Shown here: positions 460 to 51,139 of the stretch, piece after piece | Numbering within the stretch: the first letter of the stretch is position 1 | Layout of the letters: every line of letters starts with the position of its first letter | Source of the DNA: Minisyncoccota bacterium | GTDB taxonomy: Bacteria; Patescibacteriota; Minisyncoccia; Phycocordibacterales; UBA9973 | Direction: 5' to 3' | NCBI GenBank assembly: GCA_035510575.1 | Contig: DATKGV010000012.1 | Span: 7,596-71,595, forward strand | DNA: 64,000 nt | The notes under the pieces: model-generated | Database searches by the model: none | The model's input: only the letters and a program-made list of their open reading frames with translations | What the model was told of the DNA's origin: nothing | Program-made: the position numbers and the translations under genes

Positions 460-1641
460 TTATTTGCCACTTTTCTTTGCCTTGTCAGCTGTGGGTTTCT
501 TGGGACCGTCTTCTTTTGAGTCTCGAAGGTCTTTGTCGAACTTTTCCGCCGGTGTTAATTCCGCCGGAAGCTCGCCTTTTGCTTCGGCGACTTTCTGCTT
601 TCCGAATTCGACCACTCGGGCGAATCCATCCTCGAGAAGTTCCGGCGACATCATTTCGATGGCGGACCAGCTTCGAGTATTGAAGGCATACTCAAGCGCA
701 TCGGTCTTATTTTTCTTTTCCGCTGCGCTTGAGCTTGGCCAGAGCGATACGAGGTAGCCCTCAATTTCTTCTAGCCATCGCTTTTTACCCTGTACCCATT
801 TGCGCTTGTCTTCTTCGGTCTTGATCAAGTCGCCGGCATCCTGTTCGGCATAGCTGAACCGTGCCGCAATTGGATCTTTAATGATCGCTTCAATGGCAGG
901 AGCAAAGTCTTCGTAGGTCGGGTTTTTAAATACCGCACCATCGAGGAGATTGCCTCGCCCTTTGAGGACCACTGACTGACGCCAGACTTCGCGCTTCTTG
1001 CGTTGGATGAGTTCGTGGCGCTCCATGAGTACCAAGACATCAAATTCATATGCGGCGTTTTTCTCTGCCTGCATCTTCACTCCGGTCTTGGTGAACTCCT
1101 TGCGTCCGTCCTCGTCCACTTCCTGCTCCATGCGATCCGACACGCGGCCGGTTGCAAGGATATGCAGGGGTGATTGCACGAGTGGGATTGAAAAGTATTT
1201 ATTCCACTCGCTCTTGATCGACATCCAATCCTGTATCTGGAATGTCTGTCGATTAAGTTTCTTCTTATAAGCTTCTTGGAAGTCCATCCAGATGTGAGTG
1301 ATGCTGTCGATCACCATGATGTCGGCATATCCATCCGAACAGAGCTTCATTGCTTTTACCAAGTCGGCCAGCGAGTGTGTCTCGCGCACCATCGCTTCGA
1401 TTCCATTCTCTTTGAAAAGAGGAATCAGAAACTTTGATGCTTTCTCGGTATCAATAAGCACAATCGGCTTCTTACTGTTGATCTTCTTATGAAGACCAAT
1501 CGCTACTAATGCGGCAGTCCAACTTTTACCGGTTCCCGGTTCCCCTTCAAATGCCGCTTTGAAGAAAGGTTTTGTGTTCCCGATGGCGGTGAAGAATGTA
1601 TCTTCAGCTGTCGGAGAACTGCTTCGTTCTAGTGTTTGCAT
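460..1641 (-). CDS. P-loop ATPase, phage-associated AAA/RecA-like (AAA_24/Sak4-like).
   Basis: Walker A motif GEPGTGKS near the N-terminus and a Walker B-like MVIDSITH. GC of about 50% is atypical for the window. Confidence 0.5.
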   Translation of the reverse strand: MQTLERSSSPTAEDTFFTAIGNTKPFFKAAFEGEPGTGKSWTAALVAIGLHKKINSKKPIVLIDTEKASKFLIPLFKENGIEAMVRETHSLADLVKAMKLCSDGYADIMVIDSITHIWMDFQEAYKKKLNRQTFQIQDWMSIKSEWNKYFSIPLVQSPLHILATGRVSDRMEQEVDEDGRKEFTKTGVKMQAEKNAAYEFDVLVLMERHELIQRKKREVWRQSVVLKGRGNLLDGAVFKNPTYEDFAPAIEAIIKDPIAARFSYAEQDAGDLIKTEEDKRKWVQGKKRWLEEIEGYLVSLWPSSSAAEKKNKTDALEYAFNTRSWSAIEMMSPELLEDGFARVVEFGKQKVAEAKGELPAELTPAEKFDKDLRDSKEDGPKKPTADKAKKSGK

Positions 1642-3453: not shown

Positions 3454-3490
3454 AATTCGATTATATCATTTTATTATTATAAATTACAAA

Positions 3491-3513
3491 ATTTAGTAGT
3501 TGAACTACTAAAT
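3491..3513. repeat. REP palindrome copy 1: ATTTAGTAGTT-G-AACTACTAAAT.
   Basis: Perfect palindrome with 11-bp arms, 22 bp upstream of the RAYT start. Confidence 0.8.
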
Positions 3514-3534
3514 TTATGATATAATCAAATAATC

Positions 3535-4164
3535 ATGAGAAATCATATTTTTGAAATTGGGAAATATTATCATATTTATAATAGAGGAGTAGATAAAAGA
3601 GATATTATTTTAGACGAAGAAGATATTAAAAGGTTTTTGCAAAGTTTAATTGAATTTAATACTATTGATCCAATTCAAAGTATTTTTCAACAACACTTAA
3701 AGAAAAAGTTAAAATTTAGTAGTTCAACTACTAAAAAACAATTGGTTTCTATTGTTGCTTATTGTATAAATCTTAATCATTTCCATTTACTCATTACTCC
3801 TCTAGTAGATAAAGGAATTGAAAAATTTATGCAACGTATTGGTGGTTACACTAGGTTTTTTAATGAAAAATATGATAGATCTGGAGCTTTATTTCAAGGA
3901 AGATTCAAATCAAAAATTATAGAAGATAATAATTACCTTCTTAATTTAAGTGCTTATATAAATTTTAATAATAGAAAAGAAGATGGAGATTTTATTTCAG
4001 AATTTAGTAAATCAAGCCTTGAGGAGTATATTCAAGATGACACAAAAGGTCTTTGTTCCAAAAAAATAATTTTATCTAATTTTAAAAATAAAAAAGATTA
4101 TTTAGAATTTGCAAAATCTTCATGGAAAGAAACTTTAAAAAGAAAAGAAGAAGTAGAATTTTAG
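3535..4164 (+). CDS. REP-associated tyrosine transposase (RAYT, IS200/IS605 TnpA-like Y1 HUH transposase).
   Basis: HUH motif HFHLLI. Conserved GYTRFFNEKYDRSGALFQGRFKS block typical of Y1 transposases. YHIYNRG near the N-terminus. Flanked by REP palindromes. Confidence 0.7.
   Translation: MRNHIFEIGKYYHIYNRGVDKRDIILDEEDIKRFLQSLIEFNTIDPIQSIFQQHLKKKLKFSSSTTKKQLVSIVAYCINLNHFHLLITPLVDKGIEKFMQRIGGYTRFFNEKYDRSGALFQGRFKSKIIEDNNYLLNLSAYINFNNRKEDGDFISEFSKSSLEEYIQDDTKGLCSKKIILSNFKNKKDYLEFAKSSWKETLKRKEEVEF
3715..3735. repeat. REP palindrome copy 2: TTTAGTAGTT-C-AACTACTAAA. It lies inside the RAYT ORF and is in frame.
   Basis: Perfect palindrome. It encodes KFSSSTTKK within the RAYT. Confidence 0.8.
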
Positions 4165-4178
4165 TAGTTGGACTACTA
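4162..4178. repeat. REP palindrome copy 3: TAGTAGT-TGG-ACTACTA.
   Basis: The palindrome overlaps the RAYT stop codon TAG. Confidence 0.75.
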
Positions 4179-4939
4179 TTATTTATATAATTTAAAACAT
4201 TTATTCTTAAGTATAGCTACTTCTTTTATTATATTTAGTTTTGATGCATATTTTACATCCTCATCAAATTCCCAACTACGTAATTCTCTTCCACTAATAG
4301 AATCCCAAATTAATTTTTTAAATTTGGATTTAGATTTTTTATATGCATTTAAACACACTTCTACTTCTGGTGATTTTGTTCCTTTTAAATAACTAATTAT
4401 TAATCCCGCTCCTAAATAATCTTCAATATTGGGACGTAATTCCTTATCCCCCTCCATCTTTCTCCACAAGATATAATAGTAACAGGTATTTTATTAAATT
4501 TTCTTATTCTATTAACTATTTGCGCCACAGGACGAGCATTTATTATGGAACCAATAAAAACAAAATCATTATTTTCAGCTATTTTAGAATAAGTTGAACC
4601 ATTACGAGATGGTAATAAAAATTTTTTACCATTACATGATTTATTAAAAGACAAAGAAGATAAGGATTGTTTATTATAAAGTTTTGCTTCTGACCTTCCT
4701 AATACAACTTCTGCATTAATCTCTTTTGCATATGAATCTATATCTTCTATTTCTGTTTTTGAAAAAGGAAAAATTTCTGATCCATAGTGAATTGCTGTTG
4801 TTACAGTAGTGGAGAAACTCAAAATATCAACAATTATAATAATATCTTTTCTTTTTACTGCTTCTTTTATACCATTTAGACCCCAATCCAATTTACATTC
4901 AAATGGTTCTTGATTAAATACATTATCTGTTTCTTTCAT
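4179..4939 (-). pseudogene. 2-phosphosulfolactate phosphatase family (ComB-like), split by a frameshift at a G5/C5 homopolymer near 4440-4446.
   Basis: Two adjacent-frame ORFs, 4412..4939 and 4179..4469, together resemble ComB: VDILSFSTTV; FLLPSRNGST...ISCGERW; EDYLGAGLIISYL. The frames are joined by a +1 shift at GGGGG. Confidence 0.5.
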
Positions 4940-4951
4940 TATTTTTGAGAA

Positions 4952-4978
4952 AATTTTAGTAGTTGGACTACTAAAATT
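4952..4978. repeat. REP palindrome copy 4: AATTTTAGTAGT-TGG-ACTACTAAAATT.
   Basis: Near-perfect palindrome just upstream of the ComB-like gene start. Confidence 0.75.
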
Positions 4979-4984
4979 ATTAAT

Positions 4985-6433
4985 TTATTTTAATAACTCT
5001 TTTAATATCTTCTGAACAAGTGCAGGATTAGCCGAACCTTTGGTTTCCTTCATAATTTGGCCGACAAGTGACATAAGGGCATTTTCCTTGCCCCCTTTAT
5101 ATGTTGCTACCACTTGCGGATTAGCATCAATAACTTTTTGAACGATTTCTTTAAGCGCGCTCTCATCATGATTCTGTATCAGTCCCTTCTCATTGGCTAT
5201 TTTTTCCGGAGATTCGTCGTTGACTACAATCATAGCAAGCATATCTTTGGCTACACGAGATGAAATTTTTCCATCAGTTGCCATATTTATAAGCTCGGCA
5301 AAGTTTTTAACGCTTGGAAGTTTAATATCTCCATTTAATTTTTTTAACCCCAAATAATCAGAAGTTATATAATTGGAAGATATTTTAATTTTATTTTTAT
5401 CATTTAATATTTTAGCAATATCTTCAAACCATGTTCCAAGTTCAATATCAGTAATATAGCTTTCAATATCCTCATCTTTTATTCCGTAATCATTCTTATA
5501 ACGATTTCGTTTTGCGCTTGGCAATTCAGGCAAGCTTTTCCTTATTGCTTCAATATCAAAGACCTTGCTTAAATACAATTTTGGCAAATCAGGGTCCGGG
5601 AAATAGCGATAATCATTAGCATTTTCTTTTGAACGCTGAGAGAAAGTTATTTGTTTATTCTCATCCCAACCACGAGTTTCTTGAACTATTTCACTTCCCT
5701 TTCCAGCATCAAGTAATTCTGTCATTCTTTTAATTTCAAATTCTGCTGCTCGTTCAACTGCGCGAAAAGAATTGATATTTTTTATTTCGCATTTTGTGCC
5801 TAATTTATCAGGATTATCAGAAAGTGATATATTAAGCTCCACTCGCATTTGGCCTTTTTCCATATTTGCTTCTGAGACGCCAAGATAACGAAGCAAAAGC
5901 TGTAATTCACGGCCAAAGTTCCCCGCTTCTTTAGCGCTGTGTATAACTGGTTCAGTAACAAGTTCCATAAGCGGTACGCCTGCGCGATTAAAATCTACAA
6001 GCGAATAATCGCCCTTGTCGTGCTTGCTTGTTGCTGTATCTTCTTCAAGATGAACTCGAGTTATAGCAACTCCATTTAATTCTCCGCCTGAAACGATCGG
6101 AAATTTATATTGAGAAATCTGATACGCCTTTGGTATGTCGGGATAGAAATAATTTTTGCGGTCAAATTCGGTAAAATCGGCAATATTGGCATTCAGTGCA
6201 AGCCCTACTTTTATAACATATTCAACTGCTTTCTTATTTATTACAGGCAAAGTGCCGGGGTGTGCCATGCAGACCGGGCAGATATTTACGTTTGGCGCAT
6301 CTATATCTGGATTATTGGCGCAACCGCAAAACATCTTTGAATTTGTCTTCAATTCCGCGTGAATTTCAAGGCCTATGGTTGTGTAATATTGTTTCGGCAT
6401 TGGTTGATTATAGCAAAAGTTGTAAAATTTCAA
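4985..6433 (-). CDS. gatB: Asp-tRNA(Asn)/Glu-tRNA(Gln) amidotransferase subunit B.
   Basis: N-terminus YYTTIGLEIHAELKTNSKMFCGC. C-terminal GatB/YqeY domain. Confidence 0.9.
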   Translation of the reverse strand: MKFYNFCYNQPMPKQYYTTIGLEIHAELKTNSKMFCGCANNPDIDAPNVNICPVCMAHPGTLPVINKKAVEYVIKVGLALNANIADFTEFDRKNYFYPDIPKAYQISQYKFPIVSGGELNGVAITRVHLEEDTATSKHDKGDYSLVDFNRAGVPLMELVTEPVIHSAKEAGNFGRELQLLLRYLGVSEANMEKGQMRVELNISLSDNPDKLGTKCEIKNINSFRAVERAAEFEIKRMTELLDAGKGSEIVQETRGWDENKQITFSQRSKENANDYRYFPDPDLPKLYLSKVFDIEAIRKSLPELPSAKRNRYKNDYGIKDEDIESYITDIELGTWFEDIAKILNDKNKIKISSNYITSDYLGLKKLNGDIKLPSVKNFAELINMATDGKISSRVAKDMLAMIVVNDESPEKIANEKGLIQNHDESALKEIVQKVIDANPQVVATYKGGKENALMSLVGQIMKETKGSANPALVQKILKELLK

Positions 6434-17207: not shown

Positions 17208-17423
17208 TTAATGCGCAGCAAATTTGGAAATCCATTCATAAGGATAAGAAATAATGAAAACTATGGCGACTAGAATCCAGTAGAATGGAGCAAAAGCGAA
17301 ATATATAACTCTGTCCTTGTGCCACATCGGCAAATACCATTTTTGCATTTTCATATAAAGCAGGTTCAGCGGATAATAAATTATTCCCAATACTATCAAT
17401 AATAATGTGGCTATAAATCTCAT
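17208..17423 (-). CDS. Small membrane protein.
   Basis: Two TM helices. ORF only. Confidence 0.3.
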   Translation of the reverse strand: MRFIATLLLIVLGIIYYPLNLLYMKMQKWYLPMWHKDRVIYFAFAPFYWILVAIVFIISYPYEWISKFAAH

Positions 17424-18391
17424 AAATTAACTCCTATATTATCGCGGATAATGCGCATTTTTTCCGTAATGCGGGGTTTTATTTTATTCGCTCCTTCTTT
17501 CAAGATTGAAATAACTTTCTCCGGATTATTCATGTATGATTCCCTTTTCTTTCTCATTGGACTTATAAAAGCTATTATTTCATTTAAAAGCATTTCTTTT
17601 GATTCTTTATATCCAAGCCCGCCATGCTCATATCTTGCGCGAAGATCCTGCAAGGACTCCCCTTGCAAAAATAGCTTATGCAAGGCGAAAATATTGCACT
17701 TTTCCGGATCCTTAGGTTCTTCAGGCGTTTTGGAGTCCGTGACTATTTTCATAACGGCTTTTTTTATTTCATCATCGCTTCCAAAAAGCGGAATTGTGTT
17801 GCCGTAGCTTTTCGACATTTTTCTGCCGTCAATGCCTGGAACTATTGCCACTTCTTTCATTATTAATGCTTCCGGTATTTTAAATGTCTCCCCAAATGTA
17901 TTATTGAATTTTTGAGCAGTATCGCGCGCGTACTCAATATGCTGTTTTTGGTCGGCTCCCACCGGCACAATATCCGCGTCTTCTATTAAAATATCAGCAG
18001 CCATAAGCATCGGATAATCGAAAAGGCCGGCTGTCACCTCTTTTGCCTTCATATGGGCATCTTTATATGTTGTCGCCCGTTCAAGATACGACACCGTTGT
18101 TATGCAATTAAAATACCAAGCAAGTTCCGCAACTTCCGGAATATCCGACTGTTTGAATAGATTTACTTTTTCCGGATCAAGGCCGCAAGCCAGATAATCC
18201 ATAGCGACTTCCAGTATGTTTTTTGACAGATTATCTTTGTTTTGGGTTGTTGTTACGGCATGCAAATCCGCGATGAAAATCGAGGAATCATATTTGTCTT
18301 GAAGATCCACAAATTGCTTTACAGCTCCGAAATAATTGCCTATATGCATCACGCCCGAGGGCTGCACGCCCGATAATAATCGTTTTTTCAT
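17420..18391 (-). CDS. trpS: Tryptophanyl-tRNA synthetase.
   Basis: LSGVQPSGVMHIGNY (HIGH) and KMSKSYGN. Start assigned to MKKRLLSG, because the upstream ORF extension is occupied by a terminator hairpin. Confidence 0.85.
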   Translation of the reverse strand: MKKRLLSGVQPSGVMHIGNYFGAVKQFVDLQDKYDSSIFIADLHAVTTTQNKDNLSKNILEVAMDYLACGLDPEKVNLFKQSDIPEVAELAWYFNCITTVSYLERATTYKDAHMKAKEVTAGLFDYPMLMAADILIEDADIVPVGADQKQHIEYARDTAQKFNNTFGETFKIPEALIMKEVAIVPGIDGRKMSKSYGNTIPLFGSDDEIKKAVMKIVTDSKTPEEPKDPEKCNIFALHKLFLQGESLQDLRARYEHGGLGYKESKEMLLNEIIAFISPMRKKRESYMNNPEKVISILKEGANKIKPRITEKMRIIRDNIGVNL

Positions 18392-18448
18392 ATAAGCTGT
18401 ATAATACCAAAATAATGCGACTTTTGCACATATTTTATTAATCATATA

Positions 18449-18484
18449 AATAGAAAACCCAACAGTGGATTTCCTACTGTTGGG
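18449..18484 (-). terminator. Rho-independent terminator after the 103-aa gene.
   Basis: Stem CCCAACAGT / ACTGTTGGG. On the minus strand it is followed by TTTTCTATT. Confidence 0.65.
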
Positions 18485-18488
18485 TAAT

Positions 18489-18800
18489 TTAAACATGACT
18501 CATTTTTTCAACAAGAACAACGGCACTTAAATTCTCACATGTTCCATTTAACCAGCCTGCAACAAGATAACACATAGAAATGTCATCTGTTGATACAAGA
18601 TAATTAAATATAACCTCAAACTTATCATTAGAATTTTCAGCGATTACCGTTTTAATATCGTTGTAGATTTTTTGACAAAGACCCAAAAGAGAGTTTACAC
18701 TCATGTTTAGATCGTAATCGTAAGCGAAATCATGTTTAATAATTCCACCTTCTACCATAGATACACCTGATTTTTTGATAAAGAATTTAATTTTTTTCAT
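18489..18800 (-). CDS. Hypothetical protein.
   Basis: ORF only, very AT-rich. Own terminator. Confidence 0.4.
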   Translation of the reverse strand: MKKIKFFIKKSGVSMVEGGIIKHDFAYDYDLNMSVNSLLGLCQKIYNDIKTVIAENSNDKFEVIFNYLVSTDDISMCYLVAGWLNGTCENLSAVVLVEKMSHV

Positions 18801-18961
18801 TTCTTTGAGTATTAAATTGTTAGTAAATTATTTATTAAGTTCTCTCAATATCCATAAAGAAACTGGGAGAACCTAATAAAATCTAACAATCAAACTCAAT
18901 TTCAAAGAACTAATTTACTGTTGGCAGTTTATCACATAATATCACATTTGTCAAGCATAGC

Positions 18962-18992
18962 AGGCCTGCGGAAGCAAGGCTTCCGCAGGCCT
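18962..18992. promoter_or_regulatory. Perfect 31-nt GC-rich palindrome AGGCCTGCGGAAGC-AAG-GCTTCCGCAGGCCT in a divergent intergenic region.
   Basis: 14-bp arms. Lies between divergently oriented genes, the 103-aa gene and dnaB. Preceded by direct repeats TATCACAT x2 at 18930-18947. Confidence 0.5.
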
Positions 18993-19058: not shown

Positions 19059-20477
19059 ATGCTTAATGCTACAATAATCTTTATGGCAGATACAAAACAA
19101 AAAACAAATCTTCGCGTTCCTCCGCAAAGCGTGGATTCGGAAAAAGCCGTTCTCGGCTCTATTATGCTTCGGCCTGGAGCCATACATGAAATTAATGGCA
19201 TCATAAACGCTGATTCTTTTTATGCTTCAAAGCATTCTCAAATTTATAAGACGATGCTTGAACTTTCAAATAAGGGCGAGCCGATAGACATACTATCTGT
19301 CTCACATAAATTAACCGAGAAAGGGCTTATTGATTCCGTGGGCGGCAGCAGTTACTTGAGCGAACTTGTTAATGCCGTTCCAGCTTCAACGAATATCAAG
19401 CATTATGCCGAAATTGTGTCAAAGAAAAATATTTTAAGAAAAATAATTGAAGCCGGAGCCGATATATCTGAGATGGGTTTTCGTGAAGAAGTGGAGAATG
19501 TCTTTGATGTGCTGGATCAAGCGGAAAAGCGCATGATGGGCATCAATGACAATGTCGGCTCCCATTCGTTTAAGTCCCTTAAAGAAAGCTTGCCTGAAGC
19601 CTGGGAACGATTGGAACGGCTTCATGAAAATAAAGGCGAACTGCGAGGCGTATCGACAGGATTTCATGATTTGGACCAATATCTGTCCGGCCTTCAGAAA
19701 TCGGATCTTATCATCTTGGCGGCGCGCCCATCAATGGGCAAGACCACGCTTGCTTTAGATATTGCCCGCCAAGCTGCGCTAAAGAACGGCATTACGACTG
19801 TTATCTTTTCTCTTGAAATGAGCACTCAGCAGCTTGTTGATAGAATGCTGGCTGCAGAATCAAGAGTCAATGCCTGGAATTTAAGAACAGGCAATTTATC
19901 GGCTGAAAGCGAATTTTCAAAAATTCGCGATTCTCTTGATCGCTTGTCCAAGGCGCCTATTTTTGTCGATGATATGGCCGGCAATTCCATAGTCCGCATG
20001 CGATCAATCTGCCGCCGCATCCGCGCCGAACACGGCATAGGCATGATTATCGTGGATTATCTCCAGTTGATGTCGACTTCCAAAGATTATGACAGCATGG
20101 TCAATCAAGTAACTGAAATTTCCCGTTCCCTCAAGGCGCTTGCTAAAGAATTCGAAGTGCCGGTTCTGGCATTGTCCCAGCTTTCCCGAGCTGTTGAATC
20201 GCGCGGCGGCAGGCCTCGACTATCCGATCTTCGCGACTCGGGTTCCATCGAGCAGGATGCCGATGTCGTGATGTTCATCCATCGGGAAGATAAGGGCAAA
20301 GATGAGTCGGAAAGGACCAATATAGCGGAAATATTGATTGAAAAGCATCGCAATGGGCCTGTTGGCAAGATAAATCTGTACTTCGATGAAAAGACCACGA
20401 CTTTCATGAACGTAGAGAAGACAAATTTAAATCAGTTTATCTCGACTCAATCCGGCGATGAATTGGATGAACTTTAA
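19059..20477 (+). CDS. dnaB: Replicative DNA helicase.
   Basis: DnaB N-terminal domain, Walker A ARPSMGKTTLAL, RecA-like core. The start may be the internal MADTKQ at 19083. Confidence 0.9.
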   Translation: MLNATIIFMADTKQKTNLRVPPQSVDSEKAVLGSIMLRPGAIHEINGIINADSFYASKHSQIYKTMLELSNKGEPIDILSVSHKLTEKGLIDSVGGSSYLSELVNAVPASTNIKHYAEIVSKKNILRKIIEAGADISEMGFREEVENVFDVLDQAEKRMMGINDNVGSHSFKSLKESLPEAWERLERLHENKGELRGVSTGFHDLDQYLSGLQKSDLIILAARPSMGKTTLALDIARQAALKNGITTVIFSLEMSTQQLVDRMLAAESRVNAWNLRTGNLSAESEFSKIRDSLDRLSKAPIFVDDMAGNSIVRMRSICRRIRAEHGIGMIIVDYLQLMSTSKDYDSMVNQVTEISRSLKALAKEFEVPVLALSQLSRAVESRGGRPRLSDLRDSGSIEQDADVVMFIHREDKGKDESERTNIAEILIEKHRNGPVGKINLYFDEKTTTFMNVEKTNLNQFISTQSGDELDEL

Positions 20478-21099: not shown

Positions 21100-21750
21100 A
21101 TGAATCCAATAGAAAAACTTGCAGAGCAATTTAAAGAATTTCCGGGCATTGGCGAACGGCAGGCCAAGCGCTTCGTTTATTTCTTGCTTCATAAGAATCC
21201 GGATTATGTAAATGAACTTGGCGAGGCAGTTTTGTCGATTAAGAATTTAATACACCAATGCCCGTCATGCTTCTTATTTTTCCAAGGAGATAAGGGCAAG
21301 TTATGCGAGGTTTGTGCAAATAGTAATACTGACAGAACTTCCCTTCTGATTGTTGAAAAAGATGCCGATTATGAAAGTATAAAGAAAAGCAAGAATTATA
21401 ATGGCATGTATTTTATACTTGGTGGACTGGTGCCCATTGTCACGAAAGAAACGCCTAATTTTGTGCGCATTAAAGAGCTTTTAAAAACTGTTGAAGAAAG
21501 ATCAAAAAAACCTGCCCGCCCTCACGAAAGTTCGGGAGCAGGCGGGGGCGAACTTAAAGAAATTATTGTAGCCTTATCATTAAACCCGCAAGGCGAGCAT
21601 ACGGACATGTATCTTAGGGAGATATTGAATCCGCTTAAAGAAACATATAAATTTAATATCGTATCTTTGGGGCGAGGTCTTTCTACTGGCACTGAACTGG
21701 AATATTCAGACAGCGAGACGATAAAAAATGCTCTTTTAAATAGAGCATAA
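21100..21750 (+). CDS. recR: Recombination protein RecR, carrying an in-frame GC-rich repeat insertion.
   Basis: HhH EFPGIGERQAKRF. C4 zinc finger CPSCFLF..CEVC. Toprim EIIVALSLNPQGEHT. An atypical KKPARPHESSGAGGG insert is encoded by repeat A. Confidence 0.85.
   Translation: MNPIEKLAEQFKEFPGIGERQAKRFVYFLLHKNPDYVNELGEAVLSIKNLIHQCPSCFLFFQGDKGKLCEVCANSNTDRTSLLIVEKDADYESIKKSKNYNGMYFILGGLVPIVTKETPNFVRIKELLKTVEERSKKPARPHESSGAGGGELKEIIVALSLNPQGEHTDMYLREILNPLKETYKFNIVSLGRGLSTGTELEYSDSETIKNALLNRA
21504..21550. repeat. GC-rich repeat family A, copy 1 (AAAAAAACCTGCCCGCCCTCACGAAAGTTCGGGAGCAGGCGGGGG), in frame in recR.
   Basis: Near-identical reverse-complement copy at 26125-26170. Partial copy at 48156-48170. 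About 70% GC in an AT-rich context. Confidence 0.8.
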
Positions 21751-26067: not shown

Positions 26068-27336
26068 TTAAGACAATCTCTCTTTGAAATCCTTATAGCC
26101 GAATTTCTTTATAATTTTAATCTTACCCCCGCCTGCTCCCGAACTATCGTGAGGGCGGGCAGGTTTTTTTATTATAGCAATTGAAGGAAGATTTATGCCA
26201 TTAAAAGTATTGTTCTTAACCATCGTATAAATGGCCATGTTTAAGAAAATTATTTTTTGCCCGATAGTTGAAGGTTGTGGAAAAGAGTAATCTCCTATAA
26301 CATCTCCAGTCAAACAGCTCGGGCCGACTAAGCGATAAATGTTCACATTTCCTTCTGTAGCTGATTTAGCGCCAAGAATAGTTGGTAAATAAGGCATTTC
26401 CAAGACGTCAGGCATATGAGTAGTGGCCGAGACGTCTATTACAGCGATATTCATATTATTTTTTGTTATATCAACTACGCTGCCTATTAAAATGCCAGCA
26501 TTAAGTGCTATGGCTTCACCCGGCTCTAAATAAACTTGCAAGTGCGGATATTGGGCTTTAAAATCCATGATTATCTTATTAAGAAGCGCAATATCATAGT
26601 CCTTGCGCGTAATATGATGCCCGCCGCCGAAATTAACCCATTTCATCCGAGGCAAAAATTCGCCGAATTTTTCTTCAAATACTTTAAGCGTACGCTCTAG
26701 TGCATCAGCATTAAGCTCGCAAAGATTATGAAAATGAAGGCCGTCTATGCCATCCAAATTATTTGATTCAAAATTCGTTTTGGTCACGCCGAAATGGGAA
26801 TTAGGCCTGCTTGGGTCATACATAGGATTTTCCGTTTCGCTATGTTCCACATTTACCCTGATTCCGCAAGAAATTTTCTTTTTAGAATTTTTAATAACAT
26901 TCTTAAATTTATTCCATTGCGAAAATGAATTAAAAACCATATGATCAGCGTATCTGACATATTCTTTCATATTTTCTTTAGTATATGACGGAGAAAAGAC
27001 GTGGACTTCCCCGCCGAATTTTTTATATCCTAGACGCGCTTCATTTACTGAACTTGCTTCGCTTCCTGTAAGATATTTTTTGATCAATGGGAAAACGGAA
27101 AACATAGAAAAACTTTTCAGCGCCATTATGATTTTACAGCCGGTTTTTTCTTGAACGGAAGAAAGTATTTTAAGATTATGTTCCAATCTTTCCTCGCTCA
27201 CCACATAACAGGGCGTTTCAACATCAGAAAAATCCTGCGCATTCCAGCCCTCTTCATCTACCCAAGGTTCAATAAACATATTTTCTTTTTTATCAGGCAT
27301 TTTAATTTTAATTTTTGATGCTACAAACTCTGCCAT
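26068..27336 (-). CDS. nspC: Carboxynorspermidine/carboxyspermidine decarboxylase (PLP fold III), with a repeat-encoded C-terminal extension.
   Basis: NspC-like alignment throughout: KSFSMF...NFGGGHHI...EPGEAIA...GPSCLTGDV. C-terminal tail IKKPARPHDSSGAGGGKIKIIKK is encoded by repeat A copy 2. Confidence 0.8.
   Translation of the reverse strand: MAEFVASKIKIKMPDKKENMFIEPWVDEEGWNAQDFSDVETPCYVVSEERLEHNLKILSSVQEKTGCKIIMALKSFSMFSVFPLIKKYLTGSEASSVNEARLGYKKFGGEVHVFSPSYTKENMKEYVRYADHMVFNSFSQWNKFKNVIKNSKKKISCGIRVNVEHSETENPMYDPSRPNSHFGVTKTNFESNNLDGIDGLHFHNLCELNADALERTLKVFEEKFGEFLPRMKWVNFGGGHHITRKDYDIALLNKIIMDFKAQYPHLQVYLEPGEAIALNAGILIGSVVDITKNNMNIAVIDVSATTHMPDVLEMPYLPTILGAKSATEGNVNIYRLVGPSCLTGDVIGDYSFPQPSTIGQKIIFLNMAIYTMVKNNTFNGINLPSIAIIKKPARPHDSSGAGGGKIKIIKKFGYKDFKERLS
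26125..26170. repeat. GC-rich repeat family A, copy 2 (reverse complement of copy 1), at the 3' end of nspC.
   Basis: CCCCCGCCTGCTCCCGAACTATCGTGAGGGCGGGCAGGTTTTTTT. One mismatch relative to copy 1. Confidence 0.8.
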
Positions 27337-27362: not shown

Positions 27363-29030
27363 TTAATAAACTTCCTGTTGATAACACTTCTCGCAATATA
27401 TGGTTTCTGGTCGATCTGGAGAGTAGGTTGTCTCAAATTCATTCAAACAATCTTTTTTCATACACTTCCTATGCCAAAGCTTGATGGGATTTCTTTTGGA
27501 CATTCTTTCTTTGTGACGACATTCAAAATCTTTGTGAGGTGAAGGCAGATGCATTCTTTTATAAAAATCTAATTCTGCTTGTATTAGTCTGAAGTTCTTG
27601 TTGCATTCTTCACAGACCAAAATTTCATTTGTTAGATTATCTACAACATCCTCTGGCATATTTGGTATTTCACCTTTTTTAATAGTTTCTTTTCCATAAG
27701 TACCAGTCGCTTTATCTTGCCATTTGTATCCTCTTTTCATTGTTTCATCTTTATTAAGAGGAAAGAAGTCTTGAATTAGTGATTCATTATAAGCAAAAGG
27801 CGCAACTTCTGGCGGAAAGAATTGTCCAAATATGTCTTCTTTTTTGAATTGTTCCTCAATTTTTTCTTTTAAATTAAAATATTCTTCTTTTGAATATTCC
27901 TTGTTCAAGATCATATAGTTACCTTTTCTAATAGAAATACATCCTATGGCATTTGATAAATGGTGGCAATTATCACAATACTCAACTTCATTACAATAAA
28001 ACACAAAAGCTGAATTTTTAAGTCTACTACCTTCAAGAGCACCCATAATATTGTATCCGAATTCAGGTTTATAATAATAATTATTACAATCCCAACTATC
28101 TATTGGTTTTTCGGTATCTTTCATATAAGAACAATTTTTTGAATCATAAGTATCAAAGAGCATTACTCCTTCATGACAATTATGAAGATAGTCTCCGGTT
28201 ACATTATGACATTTTGTTTGTGTGGAAAATTTTACGATAGTTTCCTTTTTTAATTTTTCAAATTCTTTTTTGGCGTTTTCTATACTTTCATAATCTTTTA
28301 AAATTTCAGATTTTTTCTTATCATATTCTTCTTTACTATATTTAATATTAAAAATTGAATTAGATATATTCATTCCATTTACGCAGAAAATACAATTATT
28401 TGAATTGTGAGTGTTGTAACAGAATAACAAATCACTAGACGACTGACATTTTTCACAAAACATGCATTTAAAACATTTACGACTATCTATGCATTCATAA
28501 CATAATTCTGATTCATGAAGAAAGGCGCAGTCTACGCACTGCTTGTCTCTTTGCATTAGTCTCCCATATAGACAATCTTCATTATAATCAGAAGCGAAAA
28601 TCAGATAGCAATCTTTATTTTCAGCTGATCCATTTGTATAATCGCTTCTAACATTTTGTATAGCCACAAGACCAAGCCTAGGTACTTCAAGTTGTAATTC
28701 TCTATATTGTTCAAAAAAAGTTTTAGAAAAATCATAATCTTTTGCAAAACTTTTTGGATCCCAATCATCACTCCACCAACATTTACTACAATATACTTTA
28801 TATGGAGATTCTGGATCATAAAGTGTAATCATATCTTTTTTACATAAATCGCACGGTCTTTTATATAAGATTCTTTCGTTTCGAAAGAGTAGACGTCTAG
28901 CCATTCGGCATTCTGGACAATAAAGCGGTGAAGCTGTTTTCATTTGTTCATAAAAAACAAGGTCTTCAGGTCTAATAATGAAGTCTTGTTTGCAAGTCCG
29001 GCACACTTTTTTTTCTGATTGGTATTTCAT
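27363..29030 (-). CDS. Cys-rich multi-zinc-ribbon protein (paralog A) of a family I do not recognise, embedded in the polyamine operon.
   Basis: 555 aa with at least 10 CxxC pairs. N- and C-terminal modules resemble each other (CxxC..F.I...D..FY....P..CP.CR..R...RN...LYKR.C). Identical C-terminal YSPDRPExIYCEKCYQQEVY to the paralog at 48195..49982. Confidence 0.7.
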   Translation of the reverse strand: MKYQSEKKVCRTCKQDFIIRPEDLVFYEQMKTASPLYCPECRMARRLLFRNERILYKRPCDLCKKDMITLYDPESPYKVYCSKCWWSDDWDPKSFAKDYDFSKTFFEQYRELQLEVPRLGLVAIQNVRSDYTNGSAENKDCYLIFASDYNEDCLYGRLMQRDKQCVDCAFLHESELCYECIDSRKCFKCMFCEKCQSSSDLLFCYNTHNSNNCIFCVNGMNISNSIFNIKYSKEEYDKKKSEILKDYESIENAKKEFEKLKKETIVKFSTQTKCHNVTGDYLHNCHEGVMLFDTYDSKNCSYMKDTEKPIDSWDCNNYYYKPEFGYNIMGALEGSRLKNSAFVFYCNEVEYCDNCHHLSNAIGCISIRKGNYMILNKEYSKEEYFNLKEKIEEQFKKEDIFGQFFPPEVAPFAYNESLIQDFFPLNKDETMKRGYKWQDKATGTYGKETIKKGEIPNMPEDVVDNLTNEILVCEECNKNFRLIQAELDFYKRMHLPSPHKDFECRHKERMSKRNPIKLWHRKCMKKDCLNEFETTYSPDRPETIYCEKCYQQEVY

Positions 29031-37302: not shown

Positions 37303-37335
37303 ATATTTGTTTAGCATAGCAAATTATTTATTTCT

Positions 37336-37369
37336 GAATGGTCTGGTGAGAAAGTCCGAGGACCTGAAG
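37336..37369. repeat. Repeat family B, copy 1 (TGAATGGTCTGGTGAGAAAGTCCGAGGACCTGAA), in the dnaK 5' leader.
   Basis: A second copy at 50198-50231 is identical at 32 of 34 positions. Confidence 0.75.
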
Positions 37370-37423
37370 AAATATATAATTTGCGAAGCGTTTTTAATTA
37401 ATAATTTTTAATTTATAGAAGCA

Positions 37424-47692: not shown

Positions 47693-48115
47693 TTACTTTA
47701 ACCTATCATAATGATACCCTTCTTCTTCTCTTTTTCTCGTTTGTTCTTCTGTTTCTGTTATATATTTTCCCTTGCCTGTTAATGTATTTTCAACCCAAAG
47801 AAAATATGGCGGGGTTGTCATTGAAATATCGGATCTCACTATCATTGGAATATTATACGAGTGTTCTGTTTCTATATGTTTAATAAGCTTGTCGCTTAAT
47901 ATTTTCGTGGTTGCAAGCATTAGCATGCATTGGCCAATTTCTCGTATGACATTGTTCCATGGATATATTGAATTAACCATCCAATAATCCGCAGAAGTGG
48001 CCAACTTTTCTTCTATGGCGGAATAACCTATTGCTCTCGCCTCTTCCATATCCATGCAAGTCGTATAAACAAAAACGATTTCTTTTGACTCTTTTTCTAC
48101 TTTTTCAAAAATCAT
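47693..48115 (-). CDS. cutA: Divalent cation tolerance protein CutA.
   Basis: VYTTCMDMEEARAI...LATSADYWMVNSIYPW...NIPMIV aligns with the CutA1 fold. Confidence 0.65.
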   Translation of the reverse strand: MIFEKVEKESKEIVFVYTTCMDMEEARAIGYSAIEEKLATSADYWMVNSIYPWNNVIREIGQCMLMLATTKILSDKLIKHIETEHSYNIPMIVRSDISMTTPPYFLWVENTLTGKGKYITETEEQTRKREEEGYHYDRLK

Positions 48116-48149: not shown

Positions 48150-48185
48150 TGCTGACCCGCCTGCTCCCGACTACAGTAGAGCGAG
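48150..48185. repeat. Partial copy of GC-rich repeat family A (CCCGCCTGCTCCCGA core), flanked by a duplicated pseudo 3' end of the Cys-rich paralog gene.
   Basis: 48156-48170 matches the repeat A core. AATAAACTTCCTGCTGA (48139-48155) duplicates the paralog stop region AATAAACCTCTTGCTGG (48197-48213). Confidence 0.55.
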
Positions 48186-48194
48186 TAACATTTC

Positions 48195-49982
48195 TCAATA
48201 AACCTCTTGCTGGTAACATTTCTCGCAGTATATAATCTCTGGTCGGTCTGGTGAATATGATGTTTCAAACTCTATGTCACAGTTATTATTTCCGTGAAAA
48301 TGACTTGTCTTGTCACACATACACTTCCTATGCCAGAGTTTCATAGGATTACGCATTTTTAATCTTTCTCTATGACGACAAAAGAAACATAGATGTGGCA
48401 ATGGCACTTTTAATTTTTTATACAAATTTAATTCATCTTCTATTACTTTAAAGGCCTTCCGGCAATAAATATTATTTTCATTTACATTTTCGCATTCTAT
48501 AATTTCTCTAATTATTTCATCAGAAACGTCATTTAGTTTATCCGGCAAATCTTTTGCTTTTATAGTTGCTTTATATTCATTTACTTGCCTCTCTCGCCAT
48601 TTATAACCTTCTTTTAATATCTTCTCTTTTGTTTTAGGAAAATAATCTTGAGCAACTGTTTCATTGTAGGCAAATGGTGAAAGTTCTACTGGAAAAAATT
48701 CTCCATATTTATAAATAATCTTATTTTTATCAACATAAGGAATATTCATCATTTGCTGTTTTATTTTTGAAACGAGTTTTTCATATTCATCTTTTGAATA
48801 TTGTTTATTTAAAATACAATATTTTTTATTTCTTAAGCCAAGACAGCCAAATAGGTTAGAACAGCCATAACAATTAAAGCAATATTCTATTTCATTTGAA
48901 CTATATACAACACTAGTAAAAAGATTGCGGTAATTTCCTATTCCAGTGTCAAAAATTTCATAAGTCAATTCTGCTAATCCTATTCCAGGACCAGAATCAT
49001 AACCATCTTTTACATCTTTTTCTAGCCAATGAGAATATTTACAATCTTCTATATTGCCCTTTGCATCAAAACAAAATTTGCAATTTTTTGTTCCCTCAAG
49101 ATTATCGCCGATAGAATTAACTGTTTTTATATGGATAGCAAAGCGATGTAATGACTTTAAATACAATTCTTTGAAATTTTTTTTGAGCTCTAAAATTATT
49201 TTATAATCTGTTAAATCCAATTCAGCCAGACGATGATTATACTCTTCTTTAGACAGTTGCTTATTCCACATACAATAGGACTTGCTTCGAAGATTACTGC
49301 AACCAAAACAATTTACACAGCCATGACAATCATATAAAAAATAAGAGTCGACACAATTTTTGCAGTTTAAAGAATATAAAAGATGGTAACAATCTGAACA
49401 AATAACATCATCATAACAAAGTTCTGCATCATTAACTACATAAAGATCGGAAGAATCTTTAATTCTTGAAATCCGATTCGAATAAAAAGTTTGTTCAATT
49501 TGCCAAGAACCAGATGACATGTAACTGTTTCTACTTTCCTCAGCAATATTACAATAATCACTATTCGTAGCATTGCTATTTGAAAGAATTTGGAGGGGAA
49601 ATTGATTCATTAGATTTTTCCATTGCTTAAAAAATGGTTCAGAAAAATCATAATCACGCCCATAAAACATTGGGTCCCATTTATCTCCCCACCAATATTT
49701 TATATCATAAACTATGAGATTTTCATCTGGAGGATAAAGAGAAATTAAAGTTTCATTATGATCGGGAGCATTGCATTTCCTCTTAAAAAGAGACATCTCA
49801 TTTCGCCAGCATAATCTTCTTATCGTTCTGCATTCCGGACAAAAAGTTGGTGGAGGAACTTTAATTTTCTCATAAAAAGAAAAGTCGTCCGGCTCAATAA
49901 TAAAGTTTTGCTTACAGTTTTGGCATATTCTAGTTTCTGAATTCATATTCAGAATTATGCCACAATACCTCCGCCTAGGCAA
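48195..49982 (-). CDS. Cys-rich multi-zinc-ribbon protein (paralog B).
   Basis: 595 aa. Same architecture and identical C-terminal motif as 27363..29030. Overlaps the mnmA 3' end by 28 nt. Confidence 0.7.
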   Translation of the reverse strand: MPRRRYCGIILNMNSETRICQNCKQNFIIEPDDFSFYEKIKVPPPTFCPECRTIRRLCWRNEMSLFKRKCNAPDHNETLISLYPPDENLIVYDIKYWWGDKWDPMFYGRDYDFSEPFFKQWKNLMNQFPLQILSNSNATNSDYCNIAEESRNSYMSSGSWQIEQTFYSNRISRIKDSSDLYVVNDAELCYDDVICSDCYHLLYSLNCKNCVDSYFLYDCHGCVNCFGCSNLRSKSYCMWNKQLSKEEYNHRLAELDLTDYKIILELKKNFKELYLKSLHRFAIHIKTVNSIGDNLEGTKNCKFCFDAKGNIEDCKYSHWLEKDVKDGYDSGPGIGLAELTYEIFDTGIGNYRNLFTSVVYSSNEIEYCFNCYGCSNLFGCLGLRNKKYCILNKQYSKDEYEKLVSKIKQQMMNIPYVDKNKIIYKYGEFFPVELSPFAYNETVAQDYFPKTKEKILKEGYKWRERQVNEYKATIKAKDLPDKLNDVSDEIIREIIECENVNENNIYCRKAFKVIEDELNLYKKLKVPLPHLCFFCRHRERLKMRNPMKLWHRKCMCDKTSHFHGNNNCDIEFETSYSPDRPEIIYCEKCYQQEVY

Positions 49983-51139
49983 ATATCTTTGTCATATACT
50001 ACAATTGATTGACCAGAATCAACTAAAACATCATTATCAAAGGTTACTCTAGCTTCTTTATCCGAAATAATTTTTATATGACAGTTTAGTAATTCTCCAT
50101 GATAGCGAATTTGCGCAGTATATATTTTATTTTTGTCCGGAAGCTCATTTATCCAATTTGTATTATTAATAATTAATGAGCTAAAAAATTCTTTTTTTGA
50201 ATGGTCTGGTGAGTTAGTCCGAGGACCTGAAAAAAATGAATTATTTGGCGAATTTAAAACTGTAATTGTATTTTCTTTTAAATTTTTTGAAACAACATAA
50301 AGAGGCCTATTTTCGGAAGATTTTTCAGTAATCGTAAATCCATGCCTTTCGCCTAAAGTGAAAAATATTGCTCCATCATGAGTGCCTATAACTTCCTCAT
50401 TTTCATTCAGAACATTTCCCTTTTTTGATTCTATATAATGCTTTAGAAAATCTTTCATATCAAGTGGCCCTAAAAAGCAAACACCTTGACTATCTTTTTT
50501 AACTGCCGTAGGAAGCTTATATTTCTTTGCAAGTTTACGAACTTCTGTTTTCTTTAAATGTCCAATTGGGAAAAGTATATGTTCTAAATCTTTCTGAGTA
50601 AGAGTCCACAAAAAATAACTTTGATCTTTTGATGAATCAGGACTTTGTTTTAAAAAGTATTTTTCCTCCCCTGCTAAGGGGAGGTGGTCTTTAGACCGGA
50701 GGGGTGCACCCCCTCGTCTTTCAGACACTCCCCCTTCGCAGGGGGAGAAAAAAACTTTAGCATAATGTCCAGTTGCAATAAAATCTGCTCCATGACTTTT
50801 TGCAAAATTCCAAAATACACCAAACTTCACTTCGCGATTGCACATGACATCTGGATTGGGAGTATGGCCCTTTTTATATTCTTCTATCATATAGAGAGCC
50901 ACATTCTTCTTATATTCTTCCTCCGCATTACACTCCAAAAACGGAATGTTTAAATGGGCGCAAACTTTCATGGCGTCGCGCCGTTCATTTCGCCAAGAGC
51001 ATTCTATGAAGTCCGGCGTCCATGTGCGTATAAAAACTCCGACGACATTATAGCCTTGGTCTTTTAAAAGCGCGGCGCTGACTGAAGAATCTACGCCTCC
51101 GGAAACGCCGACAAACACTGTTTTATTATTTTTATTCAT
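49955..51139 (-). CDS. mnmA: tRNA-specific 2-thiouridylase MnmA carrying two in-frame repeat-derived inserts.
   Basis: PP-loop VGVSGGVDSSV. GHYA...DQSYFL. The insert SPCEGGVSERRGGAPLRSKDHLPLAGEE is encoded by a GC hairpin triplet. The insert FFSGPRTNSPDHSKKEFF is encoded by repeat B. Confidence 0.85.
   Translation of the reverse strand: MNKNNKTVFVGVSGGVDSSVSAALLKDQGYNVVGVFIRTWTPDFIECSWRNERRDAMKVCAHLNIPFLECNAEEEYKKNVALYMIEEYKKGHTPNPDVMCNREVKFGVFWNFAKSHGADFIATGHYAKVFFSPCEGGVSERRGGAPLRSKDHLPLAGEEKYFLKQSPDSSKDQSYFLWTLTQKDLEHILFPIGHLKKTEVRKLAKKYKLPTAVKKDSQGVCFLGPLDMKDFLKHYIESKKGNVLNENEEVIGTHDGAIFFTLGERHGFTITEKSSENRPLYVVSKNLKENTITVLNSPNNSFFSGPRTNSPDHSKKEFFSSLIINNTNWINELPDKNKIYTAQIRYHGELLNCHIKIISDKEARVTFDNDVLVDSGQSIVVYDKDICLGGGIVA
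50198..50231. repeat. Repeat family B, copy 2, in frame in mnmA.
   Basis: TGAATGGTCTGGTGAGTTAGTCCGAGGACCTGAA, compared with copy 1 at 37336-37369. Confidence 0.75.
50664..50747. repeat. Array of three GC-rich hairpins in frame in mnmA.
   Basis: CCTCCCC-TGCTAA-GGGGAGG. GAGGGG-TGCA-CCCCCTC. CTCCCCC-TTCGCA-GGGGGAG. Confidence 0.75.

Follow-up and report, generated by a model that had tools for sequence, protein, structure and literature searches.

How does the same short, GC-rich, palindromic segment come to lie in frame inside two unrelated genes of an AT-rich bacterial genome? The question is raised by a stretch of 64,000 nucleotides from a Minisyncoccota bacterium (assembly GCA_035510575.1, contig DATKGV010000012.1, positions 7,596 to 71,595 of the forward strand), hereafter called the window, where recR on the plus strand and nspC on the minus strand share a repeat that we name family A. 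An original prediction, made from the letters of the window, described it as a mobile element of about 45 bp that adds the peptide KKPARPH(E/D)SSGAGGG to both proteins. Our analysis suggests that family A is probably a miniature non-autonomous, hairpin-forming mobile DNA of the kind represented by repetitive extragenic palindromic (REP) sequences and Rickettsia palindromic elements (RPEs), which is translated through and retained only where a flexible loop is tolerated. The genes and copies concerned are the following.

21100-21750, plus strand: recR, 216 residues, with the Pfam domains RecR_HhH, Toprim_4 and RecR_C
21511-21546, plus strand: family-A copy 1, in frame in recR as residues 138-149 (PARPHESSGAGG), covariance model score 57.8 bits
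26068-27336, minus strand: nspC, carboxynorspermidine decarboxylase, assigned by Pfam, by PDB 9eaf_A (E 9e-131) and by homologs
26128-26163, minus strand: family-A copy 2, in frame in nspC (PARPHDSSGAGG), covariance model score 58.6 bits
48156-48189, minus strand: family-A copy 3, decayed and intergenic, covariance model score 29.8 bits (E 8e-4)

The two intragenic copies follow the pattern CCTGCCCGCCCTCACGA(A/T)AGTTCGGGAGCAGGCGGG and are identical at 35 of 36 positions. The degenerate 45-mer first proposed for the repeat matches without mismatch at 21504-21548 (plus strand) and 26126-26170 (minus strand) only, where chance would provide no match (none in 100 shuffles), and both copies lie on the sense strand of the host gene and share the codon phase, as had been claimed, encoding the peptides KKPARPHESSGAGGG and KKPARPHDSSGAGGG. 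The peptide starting with PARPH is indeed found in both proteins, but the two lysines placed before it are encoded by the hosts, because the empty sites of orthologs contain Lys codons as well. The A7 run is therefore host sequence, and comparison with empty sites gives an element of 36 nt, not 45.

A third, partial copy had been noted at 48156-48170, and the 15-mer TCGGGAGCAGGCGGG has its third exact match there on the minus strand, with 0.03 matches expected at up to two mismatches; the covariance model extends this match to a full, decayed copy. It is positioned between the open reading frames (ORFs) 48195-49982 and 47693-48115, both on the minus strand, directly past the stop of the former. 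Its 3' arm TCGGGAGCAGGCGGG is intact, and the C>T and G>A changes in its 5' arm leave G-U pairs possible on the transcribed strand. The covariance model search of the window found no family-A sites besides these three.

Family A forms a discrete unit whose ends, 5'-CCTG|CCCGCC...GGCGGG-3', are sharply defined, and its copies measure 27-40 bp with a mode of 36 bp. Structure prediction supports the proposed palindromic fold as a hairpin, although an imperfect one, in which an unpaired CCUG is followed by CCCGCC-CUCACGA-loop-UCGGGAG-(CA bulge)-GGCGGG. The folding energy of -18 to -20 kcal/mol corresponds to z = -0.8 and -2.0 against composition-matched shuffles. Searches of the window and of 14 loci with the element against Rfam 15 gave no family at the gathering threshold, with hits at chance level only (E up to 10), and IMG/VR viral contigs and PLSDB gave no family-A match, so that a phage or plasmid origin is not supported. 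A CRISPR repeat was rejected, the copies being solitary and the sole tandem array (locus L171) consisting of identical 80-nt units. Domain V of group II introns was rejected as well; by eye the outline is similar, two helices with a 3' bulge of 2 nt, but the lengths of the helices are the other way round and the AGC triad is absent.

Comparison with orthologs indicates that the segment in recR was inserted, as had been predicted. The typical RecR ortholog has 204 residues, and the alignment shows a clean 12-codon gap at the insert in most of the 120 closest relatives; the nearest relative (P0003) lacks the insert and is 93% identical outside the gap, and P0002, the other of the two closest relatives, carries it. 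The solved structure PDB 3vdp_A likewise has a gap here. The site could be located in 51 of 56 fetched species representatives of the Paceibacteria, members of the Candidate Phyla Radiation (CPR), being empty in 48 and filled in three (L008, L009, L011). At the DNA level, with L007 and others as empty-site references, the sequence is AAR AAA|GAT AAT where the site is empty and AAA AAA|CCTGCC...GGCGGG|GGC GAA where it is filled. The insert had been placed in the linker before the Toprim domain; instead, it is found inside this domain (Pfam Toprim_4, residues 82-176), in a loop between the helix 124-135 and the strand 154-158, which is unstructured in the AlphaFold2 model, with a predicted local distance difference test score below 50 at residues 140-148. 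The exact RecR protein of the window occurs on nine contigs, and the six that were fetched, from six samples, all carry the insert, which is therefore not an assembly artefact. The source of the window is itself a metagenome-assembled genome of Candidatus Paceibacterota, an ultra-small CPR bacterium that has not been cultivated.

For nspC, the longest ORF encodes 422 residues, and the database record P0121 begins 19 codons later with 403 residues. The insert forms a gap of 11-12 residues against orthologs and the solved structure 9eaf_A, and empty sites at the DNA level read AAA AAW|GGN AAA (L062, L029). It does not form the C-terminal tail that had been proposed, but is internal, 19 residues from the C-terminus, with the conserved KIKIIKKFGYKDFKxRLS coming after it.

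These comparisons bear on the reading that the KKPARPH..GAGGG segment is ancestral, a convergent low-complexity linker or an assembly artefact. The insert does sit in loops that are prone to length variation, and some RecR orthologs carry other short inserts at the same place. However, the 35/36 nt identity links two unrelated genes with no chance matches expected, the segment is missing from the nearest RecR ortholog and from 48 of the 51 representatives with a locatable site, and contigs assembled separately from six samples carry it. An ancestral segment or an artefact is refuted by the alignments with orthologs and by these separate assemblies, and we give this group of explanations practically no weight.

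The same RecR position is occupied by inserts in 15 of the 120 orthologs. They are different family members of 27, 30 and 36 nt, which all begin with CCTGCC and end with AGGCGGG. In a neighbour-joining tree calculated with the insert columns removed, the 15 insert-bearing orthologs are scattered, mostly as singletons beside insert-less sisters, and therefore many independent gains, many precise losses or an exchange of alleles is required.

Short inserts in NspC are not restricted to family A. Paceibacteria orthologs show patchy short inserts at no fewer than five loop positions, and those readable as DNA (L183 at 2907 and 3648; L184 at 462 and 1014) are hairpins of unrelated sequence, for example GCCTCTTCGGCGATCCGCCGAAGAGGC (-24 kcal/mol) and AAACCCCGAAGG..CCAACGGGGC. 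The same NspC loop is occupied by different hairpin families in different lineages.

The third context in which a filled site can be compared with an empty one is an insertion sequence (IS). The hairpin of a GC-rich subtype, T3, has a DruA-like ORF on one side and the start codon of an IS66-family transposase on the other, in an element whose named relatives come from Phycisphaerae/Planctomycetes. An IS copy with 85% identity in GCA_041320375.1 lacks exactly 36 nt, reading GGCA|TGATGACACGCC against CGCA-(36 nt)-TGATGACACGCC. All three comparisons (recR AAA|GAT, nspC AAW|GGN, IS66 GCA|TGA) give an exact insertion of 36 nt with no duplicated base, and scar-free presence and absence is thus seen in three unrelated contexts and two phyla. 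A miniature inverted-repeat transposable element, with terminal inverted repeats and a target-site duplication, does not describe family A, as no duplication is found in the three comparisons or in the flank logo described below.

The additional copies that had been foreseen were found by scanning JGI/ENA metagenome contigs with CCCGCCCTC-N(3-20)-GGGAGCAGGCGGG, in which the arms are fixed. At least 120 contigs matched, most of them without taxonomic assignment, and family A is in frame at 28 or more different essential-gene sites. The counts given in this and the next paragraph apply among the matches listed. They include 79 distinct variants of 30-40 nt, nearly all of which fold as CCCGCC-CUCNCGA-loop-UCGGGAG-(CA bulge)-GGCGGG with -15 to -28 kcal/mol, and the flanks range in GC content from 0.27 to 0.68. 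CCTG stands directly 5' of the pattern in 68-70 of 70 AT-rich copies, which the search did not demand. The flanks of these copies are unconserved except for a purine at position -1 (A/G in 57/70) and G and A at +1 and +2 (G in 43/70), and their logo contains no direct repeat. An active or recently active element had also been proposed; because the copies are nearly identical between genomes, the 35/36 identity of the window copies is uninformative on age and is not evidence of recent activity.

The strongest regularity concerns the reading frame. In AT-rich contexts, 51 of 77 copies lie inside ORFs of at least 120 residues, and these are 30, 33, 36 or 39 nt long, all 51 being divisible by three and open in the host frame. 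Outside ORFs, this holds for the length of 15/26 copies, the other 11 having 31, 34, 35 or 40 nt (Fisher p = 1e-6 against the intragenic copies). Sense orientation is found in 41 of the 51 intragenic copies (p = 1e-5), and 34 use frame S0 (CCT GCC CGC..., giving PARPH(D/E)xSGAGG; p = 3e-15 against an expectation of 1/6). Subtype T1, with the inner stem CTCACGA/TCGGGAG, is almost always read in the PARPH frame, and subtype T2 (CTCCCGA/TCGGGAG) is open in the frames checked and uses several of them, mostly the antisense frame with the peptide PPAPDxxGGRAG, which is again flexible. That every intragenic copy is a multiple of three and free of stops argues that the insert is read through, and translation of the intragenic copies is accordingly a likely reading of the conserved frame. 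Most simply, the bias in frame and orientation reflects a selection filter in which only Pro/Gly/Ser-rich, stop-free loop insertions of 3n length survive.

Copies of family A, from Paceibacteria as well as Planctomycetes, are spread over intergenic DNA and numerous unrelated genes. The host genes, assigned by Pfam or by sequence, are listed below.

IleRS (three sites), RpoB (two sites), NusA, trigger factor, EF-P, TypA, class II aminoacyl-tRNA synthetase
GyrA, SecA, YidC, UvrB, AddA-like helicase-nuclease
PurD, PurL, MurB, Mur ligase, RsmH, Asd
ComEC, PilB-like ATPase, aminopeptidase N, GH130

The strong sense-strand bias also speaks for a different account, in which the hairpin is primarily a functional nucleic-acid module under host selection rather than selfish DNA: it might stabilise the mRNA, serve as an RNase or ribosome pause site where domains meet, regulate the start of translation or terminate antisense transcripts, and its spread would be secondary. 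This account is further favoured by the near-identity of the sequence across very different genomes, as seen from the range of flank GC, and by the G-U-compatible changes on the transcribed strand of the decayed copy 3. The IS66 hairpin ends 2 nt upstream of the transposase ATG, where the 3' CAGG together with the flanking UGA forms a Shine-Dalgarno-like AGGUGA, and the antisense strand of both window copies reads as a hairpin followed by U7. However, most orthologs of every host gene do without family A, the intragenic positions are scattered, as the three sites in IleRS and two in RpoB illustrate, and the intergenic copies have no preferred orientation or distance relative to neighbouring genes. 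The terminator scan calls no antisense site and the A-runs are not general, no Rfam family matches, and the peptide-level explanation of the frame bias is simpler. We therefore consider a functional module unlikely to be the primary identity of family A.

Several matches are embedded in larger repeats. Subtype T4 is found within a repeat of about 300 nt (L074 7219-7518 and 11897-12196; also L092, L108, L117, L141 and L153), whose opposite strand reads like the helix-turn-helix of an IS3-type OrfA; next comes an A7G run, which precedes the hairpin by 17 nt. The T4 hairpin could be the frameshift stimulator of a decayed IS or simply another insert; no intact transposase ORF is present in the T4 repeats. 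In L171 (3449-3707), three perfect tandem 80-nt units, each with a family-A hairpin within a longer palindrome, adjoin a tRNA gene (3691-3772, minus strand). The AT-rich contig L116 (598-5328), with many toxin-antitoxin-like small ORFs, has two family-A copies in a duplicated unit of 282 nt and several further repeat families beginning with GCCTGCCCCG.

With regard to how the element spreads, the absence of both a target duplication and a linked transposase is compatible with a route that needs no dedicated transposase, such as recombination, homologous or illegitimate, of DNA that the cell has taken up, gene conversion from copy to copy, or template switching in replication, by which palindromes would arise. 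These organisms encode ComEC, one ComEC gene itself carries a family-A copy, and the unrelated hairpins in the same NspC loops across lineages could point to a palindrome-forming mutational hotspot. However, template switching uses local sequence and cannot explain why recR, nspC, RpoB and a Planctomycete IS66 share the same 36 nt, the flanks share no homology that could guide recombination, and the ends are base-identical in about 70 independent contexts, which makes this route quite improbable in our view.

For a mobile hairpin, we propose that family A would insert with little regard to frame and with a preference for A-rich|G junctions, that selection would then purge the insertions which break the frame or disturb the fold, and that the ribosome would read through the surviving inserts, each giving a short flexible loop. 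The imperfect hairpin, conserved with its unpaired 4-nt tag and 2-nt bulge, may be recognised in trans by a structure-specific enzyme. A single-strand HUH/Y1 transposase would be the likeliest such enzyme and would also explain the scar-free gain and loss, and the REP-like anatomy (4-nt tag, bulged stem, no duplication, scar-free polymorphism) fits a structure-specific single-strand enzyme. In IS200/IS605 elements and in the REPtrons formed with REP-associated tyrosine transposases (RAYTs), the hairpin is recognised as single-stranded DNA, there is no target duplication and excision is scar-free. Family A resembles IS200/IS605 in the absence of a target duplication, and a palindrome-flanked Y1 gene exists in the window, but no conserved tetra- or pentanucleotide was seen 5' of the family-A insertion, only the A-rich|G preference. 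A RAYT- or IS200/IS605-like enzyme is a tentative candidate for mobilising family A, and its identity is the weakest step of the proposal. The Y1 gene of the window is the following.

3535-4164, plus strand: Y1_Tnp gene, 209 residues (PF01797, Pfam 36 bits)

The best NCBIfam match of its product is the REP-associated tyrosine transposase family (NF047646), with 27 bits and below the cut-off. The gene belongs to a REPtron-like unit at 3488-4980, in which the AT-rich, GTAG-containing palindrome TTAGTAGTTSRACTACTA is placed around it at 3493, 4161 and 4956; a fourth palindrome copy at 3716 is in frame inside the transposase ORF and encodes KFSSSTTKK. A second Y1 gene, in L157, has its own flanking palindromes and is located 330 nt from an EF-P gene bearing a family-A insert. 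REPtron-like systems therefore exist in Paceibacteria. The EF-P gene of L157 that bears the family-A insert also contains, at 5415-5450, another GC-rich hairpin segment (CCCCGCCATGGCGGCGG) coding for APSTAAMAGQAG, and this small essential gene would then hold two inserts.

Several observations weigh against a mobile hairpin that is translated through and moved by such an enzyme. Translation of the insert is deduced from frame conservation and not observed, and the stability of the hairpin is not exceptional against shuffles. The recurrence at one RecR position could reflect recombinational exchange of recR alleles or repeated precise loss. The conservation of the arms across phyla is partly by construction, as the arms were set by the search pattern, and copy density is low, with three copies in the 64-kb window and five clear copies plus one borderline hit in 933 kb of other Paceibacteria loci. 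No transposase is tied to family A: the palindromes around the Y1 genes of the window (TTAGTAGTTSRACTACTA) and of L157 are unrelated to it in sequence, no RAYT/Y1 gene flanked by family-A hairpins was seen in the DNA examined, including the metagenome matches listed, and only two Y1 genes occur in about 1.8 Mb of fetched DNA.

The mobile hairpin that we favour has its closest relatives among known repeats in the REPs, GTAG- or CGTC-tagged palindromes whose super-families occur in eight phyla including the Planctomycetes (Di Nocera et al. 2013, PMC3733652). Intragenic REPs that add short peptides are on record from Opitutus, Rickettsia (RPE-4 and RPE-6) and others, especially in genes of replication and repair, and RPE-1, RPE-4 and RPE-6 are mentioned in the same work (PMC3733652). 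The novelty implied by the original prediction is thus reduced, as short intragenic REPs had already been described in several phyla.

Family A shares with the REPs the size class of 20-40 bp, the fold as one imperfect stem-loop, which bears an unpaired tag of 4 nt at one end, the G-T pairs and bulges in the stem, the occurrence of families common to several species, the presence in Planctomycetes and the sometimes intragenic location. It differs in the tag, which is CCTG, with GTAG or CGTC at neither end. Whereas REPs are mainly extragenic and reach high copy numbers, more than half of the family-A copies listed from AT-rich contigs are intragenic, and density is low. Unlike in REPtrons, no cognate RAYT flanked by the family-A hairpin was found, and the host is a CPR bacterium. 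In the literature examined, we found no report of such repeats in this group and none that links RPEs or RAYTs with the CPR, and none of four arm strings was found as a family-A element.

The parallel drawn with the Rickettsia palindromic elements was apt. Ogata and colleagues are said to have described these in 2000 as palindromic selfish DNA of a small AT-rich genome, inserted in frame into essential genes and translated as an additional surface segment, which is tolerated because of its position in loops. Family A is likewise in frame in ORFs, absent from orthologs and situated in surface loops. Classical RPE-1 reportedly measures about 100-150 bp, encodes 30-50 residues and is confined to Rickettsia, whereas family A, compared by size and GC content, has 36 bp and 12 residues, is GC-rich and is found in more than one phylum.

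A further comparison is offered by the yeast mitochondrial GC clusters and by the 81 short inserts ("byps") that Lang et al. (2014) described in the mitochondria of Magnusiomyces capitatus, according to the summary in PMC5009743. These are also short GC-rich blocks spread across the protein-coding genes of an AT-rich genome, but byps break the frame and are skipped by the ribosome (PMC5009743), in contrast to the frame-keeping, stop-free family A. Neither a frame break nor a stop, the marks of bypassed inserts of the byp or T4 gene 60 type, was found in the 51 intragenic copies. The principle of REP- or RPE-like repeats inside genes is already known, and family A extends it without forming a new category; new here are the CCTG tag, the mostly intragenic location, the CPR host group and the presence of the same unit in a Planctomycete IS.

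Other hairpin repeats occur in the window. Palindromes of a "family B", (T)GGTCTGG...TCCGAGGACC bordered by inverted A/T runs, are found at 37331-37372 and 50194-50235, one being intergenic and the other in frame in an MnmA-like ORF (49955-51139, minus strand), where it encodes FFSGPRTNSPDHSKK. Family B is also present in L023 (2665), L027 (9924), L045 (11287 and 12265) and L165 (5407), and it is located directly upstream of recR in three other genomes. The MnmA-like ORF contains two adjacent GC hairpins at 50692-50747 (-30 kcal/mol), which apparently encode an extra segment, SPCEGGVSERRGGAPLRS..., that we take to be missing from E. coli MnmA, and the pair is a candidate for a further in-frame hairpin insert.

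The ORFs 27363-29030 and 48195-49982 encode paralogous Cys-rich, zinc-ribbon-like proteins of 555 and 595 residues, with a 92-nt repeat in common (72% identity) and no solid Pfam or NCBIfam family. One of the two is syntenic with nspC in relatives (L183), and family-A copy 3 is located just past the stop of the other. A third ORF of 595 residues, 57439-59226, has no Pfam match. Positions 1-2000 of the window have 47% GC against about 35% elsewhere and include an ORF with an AAA_24 domain (460-1641, minus strand), and this part may be foreign or phage-derived DNA. Between the ORFs 17420-18496 and 19059-20477, a perfect 14-bp GC hairpin followed by TTT (18960-18992, -29 kcal/mol) looks like a bidirectional intrinsic terminator.

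CPR/Patescibacteria genomes are regarded as streamlined and poor in mobile DNA, and here a 36-bp element is found inside RecR, NspC, RpoB, GyrA, SecA, IleRS and many other indispensable genes. A more speculative extension, to which we assign a minor probability, is that family A represents one lineage of an unrecognised class of ultra-small mobile hairpins that are conserved in sequence, pass between phyla and move in and out without scars, in the CPR, the Planctomycetes and their ISs, and that several such families in Paceibacteria (A, B and the NspC and MnmA hairpins) continually remodel the surface loops of essential proteins, as a main source of the lineage-specific inserts of the CPR. If confirmed genome-wide, family A would explain some of the puzzling short inserts in CPR proteins and would be a warning, in annotation and structure modelling, against taking loops of this kind for functional motifs when they are selfish DNA. 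It would furthermore offer strain-level markers and, as a very small substrate, help to identify the enzyme behind the scar-free movement of hairpins.

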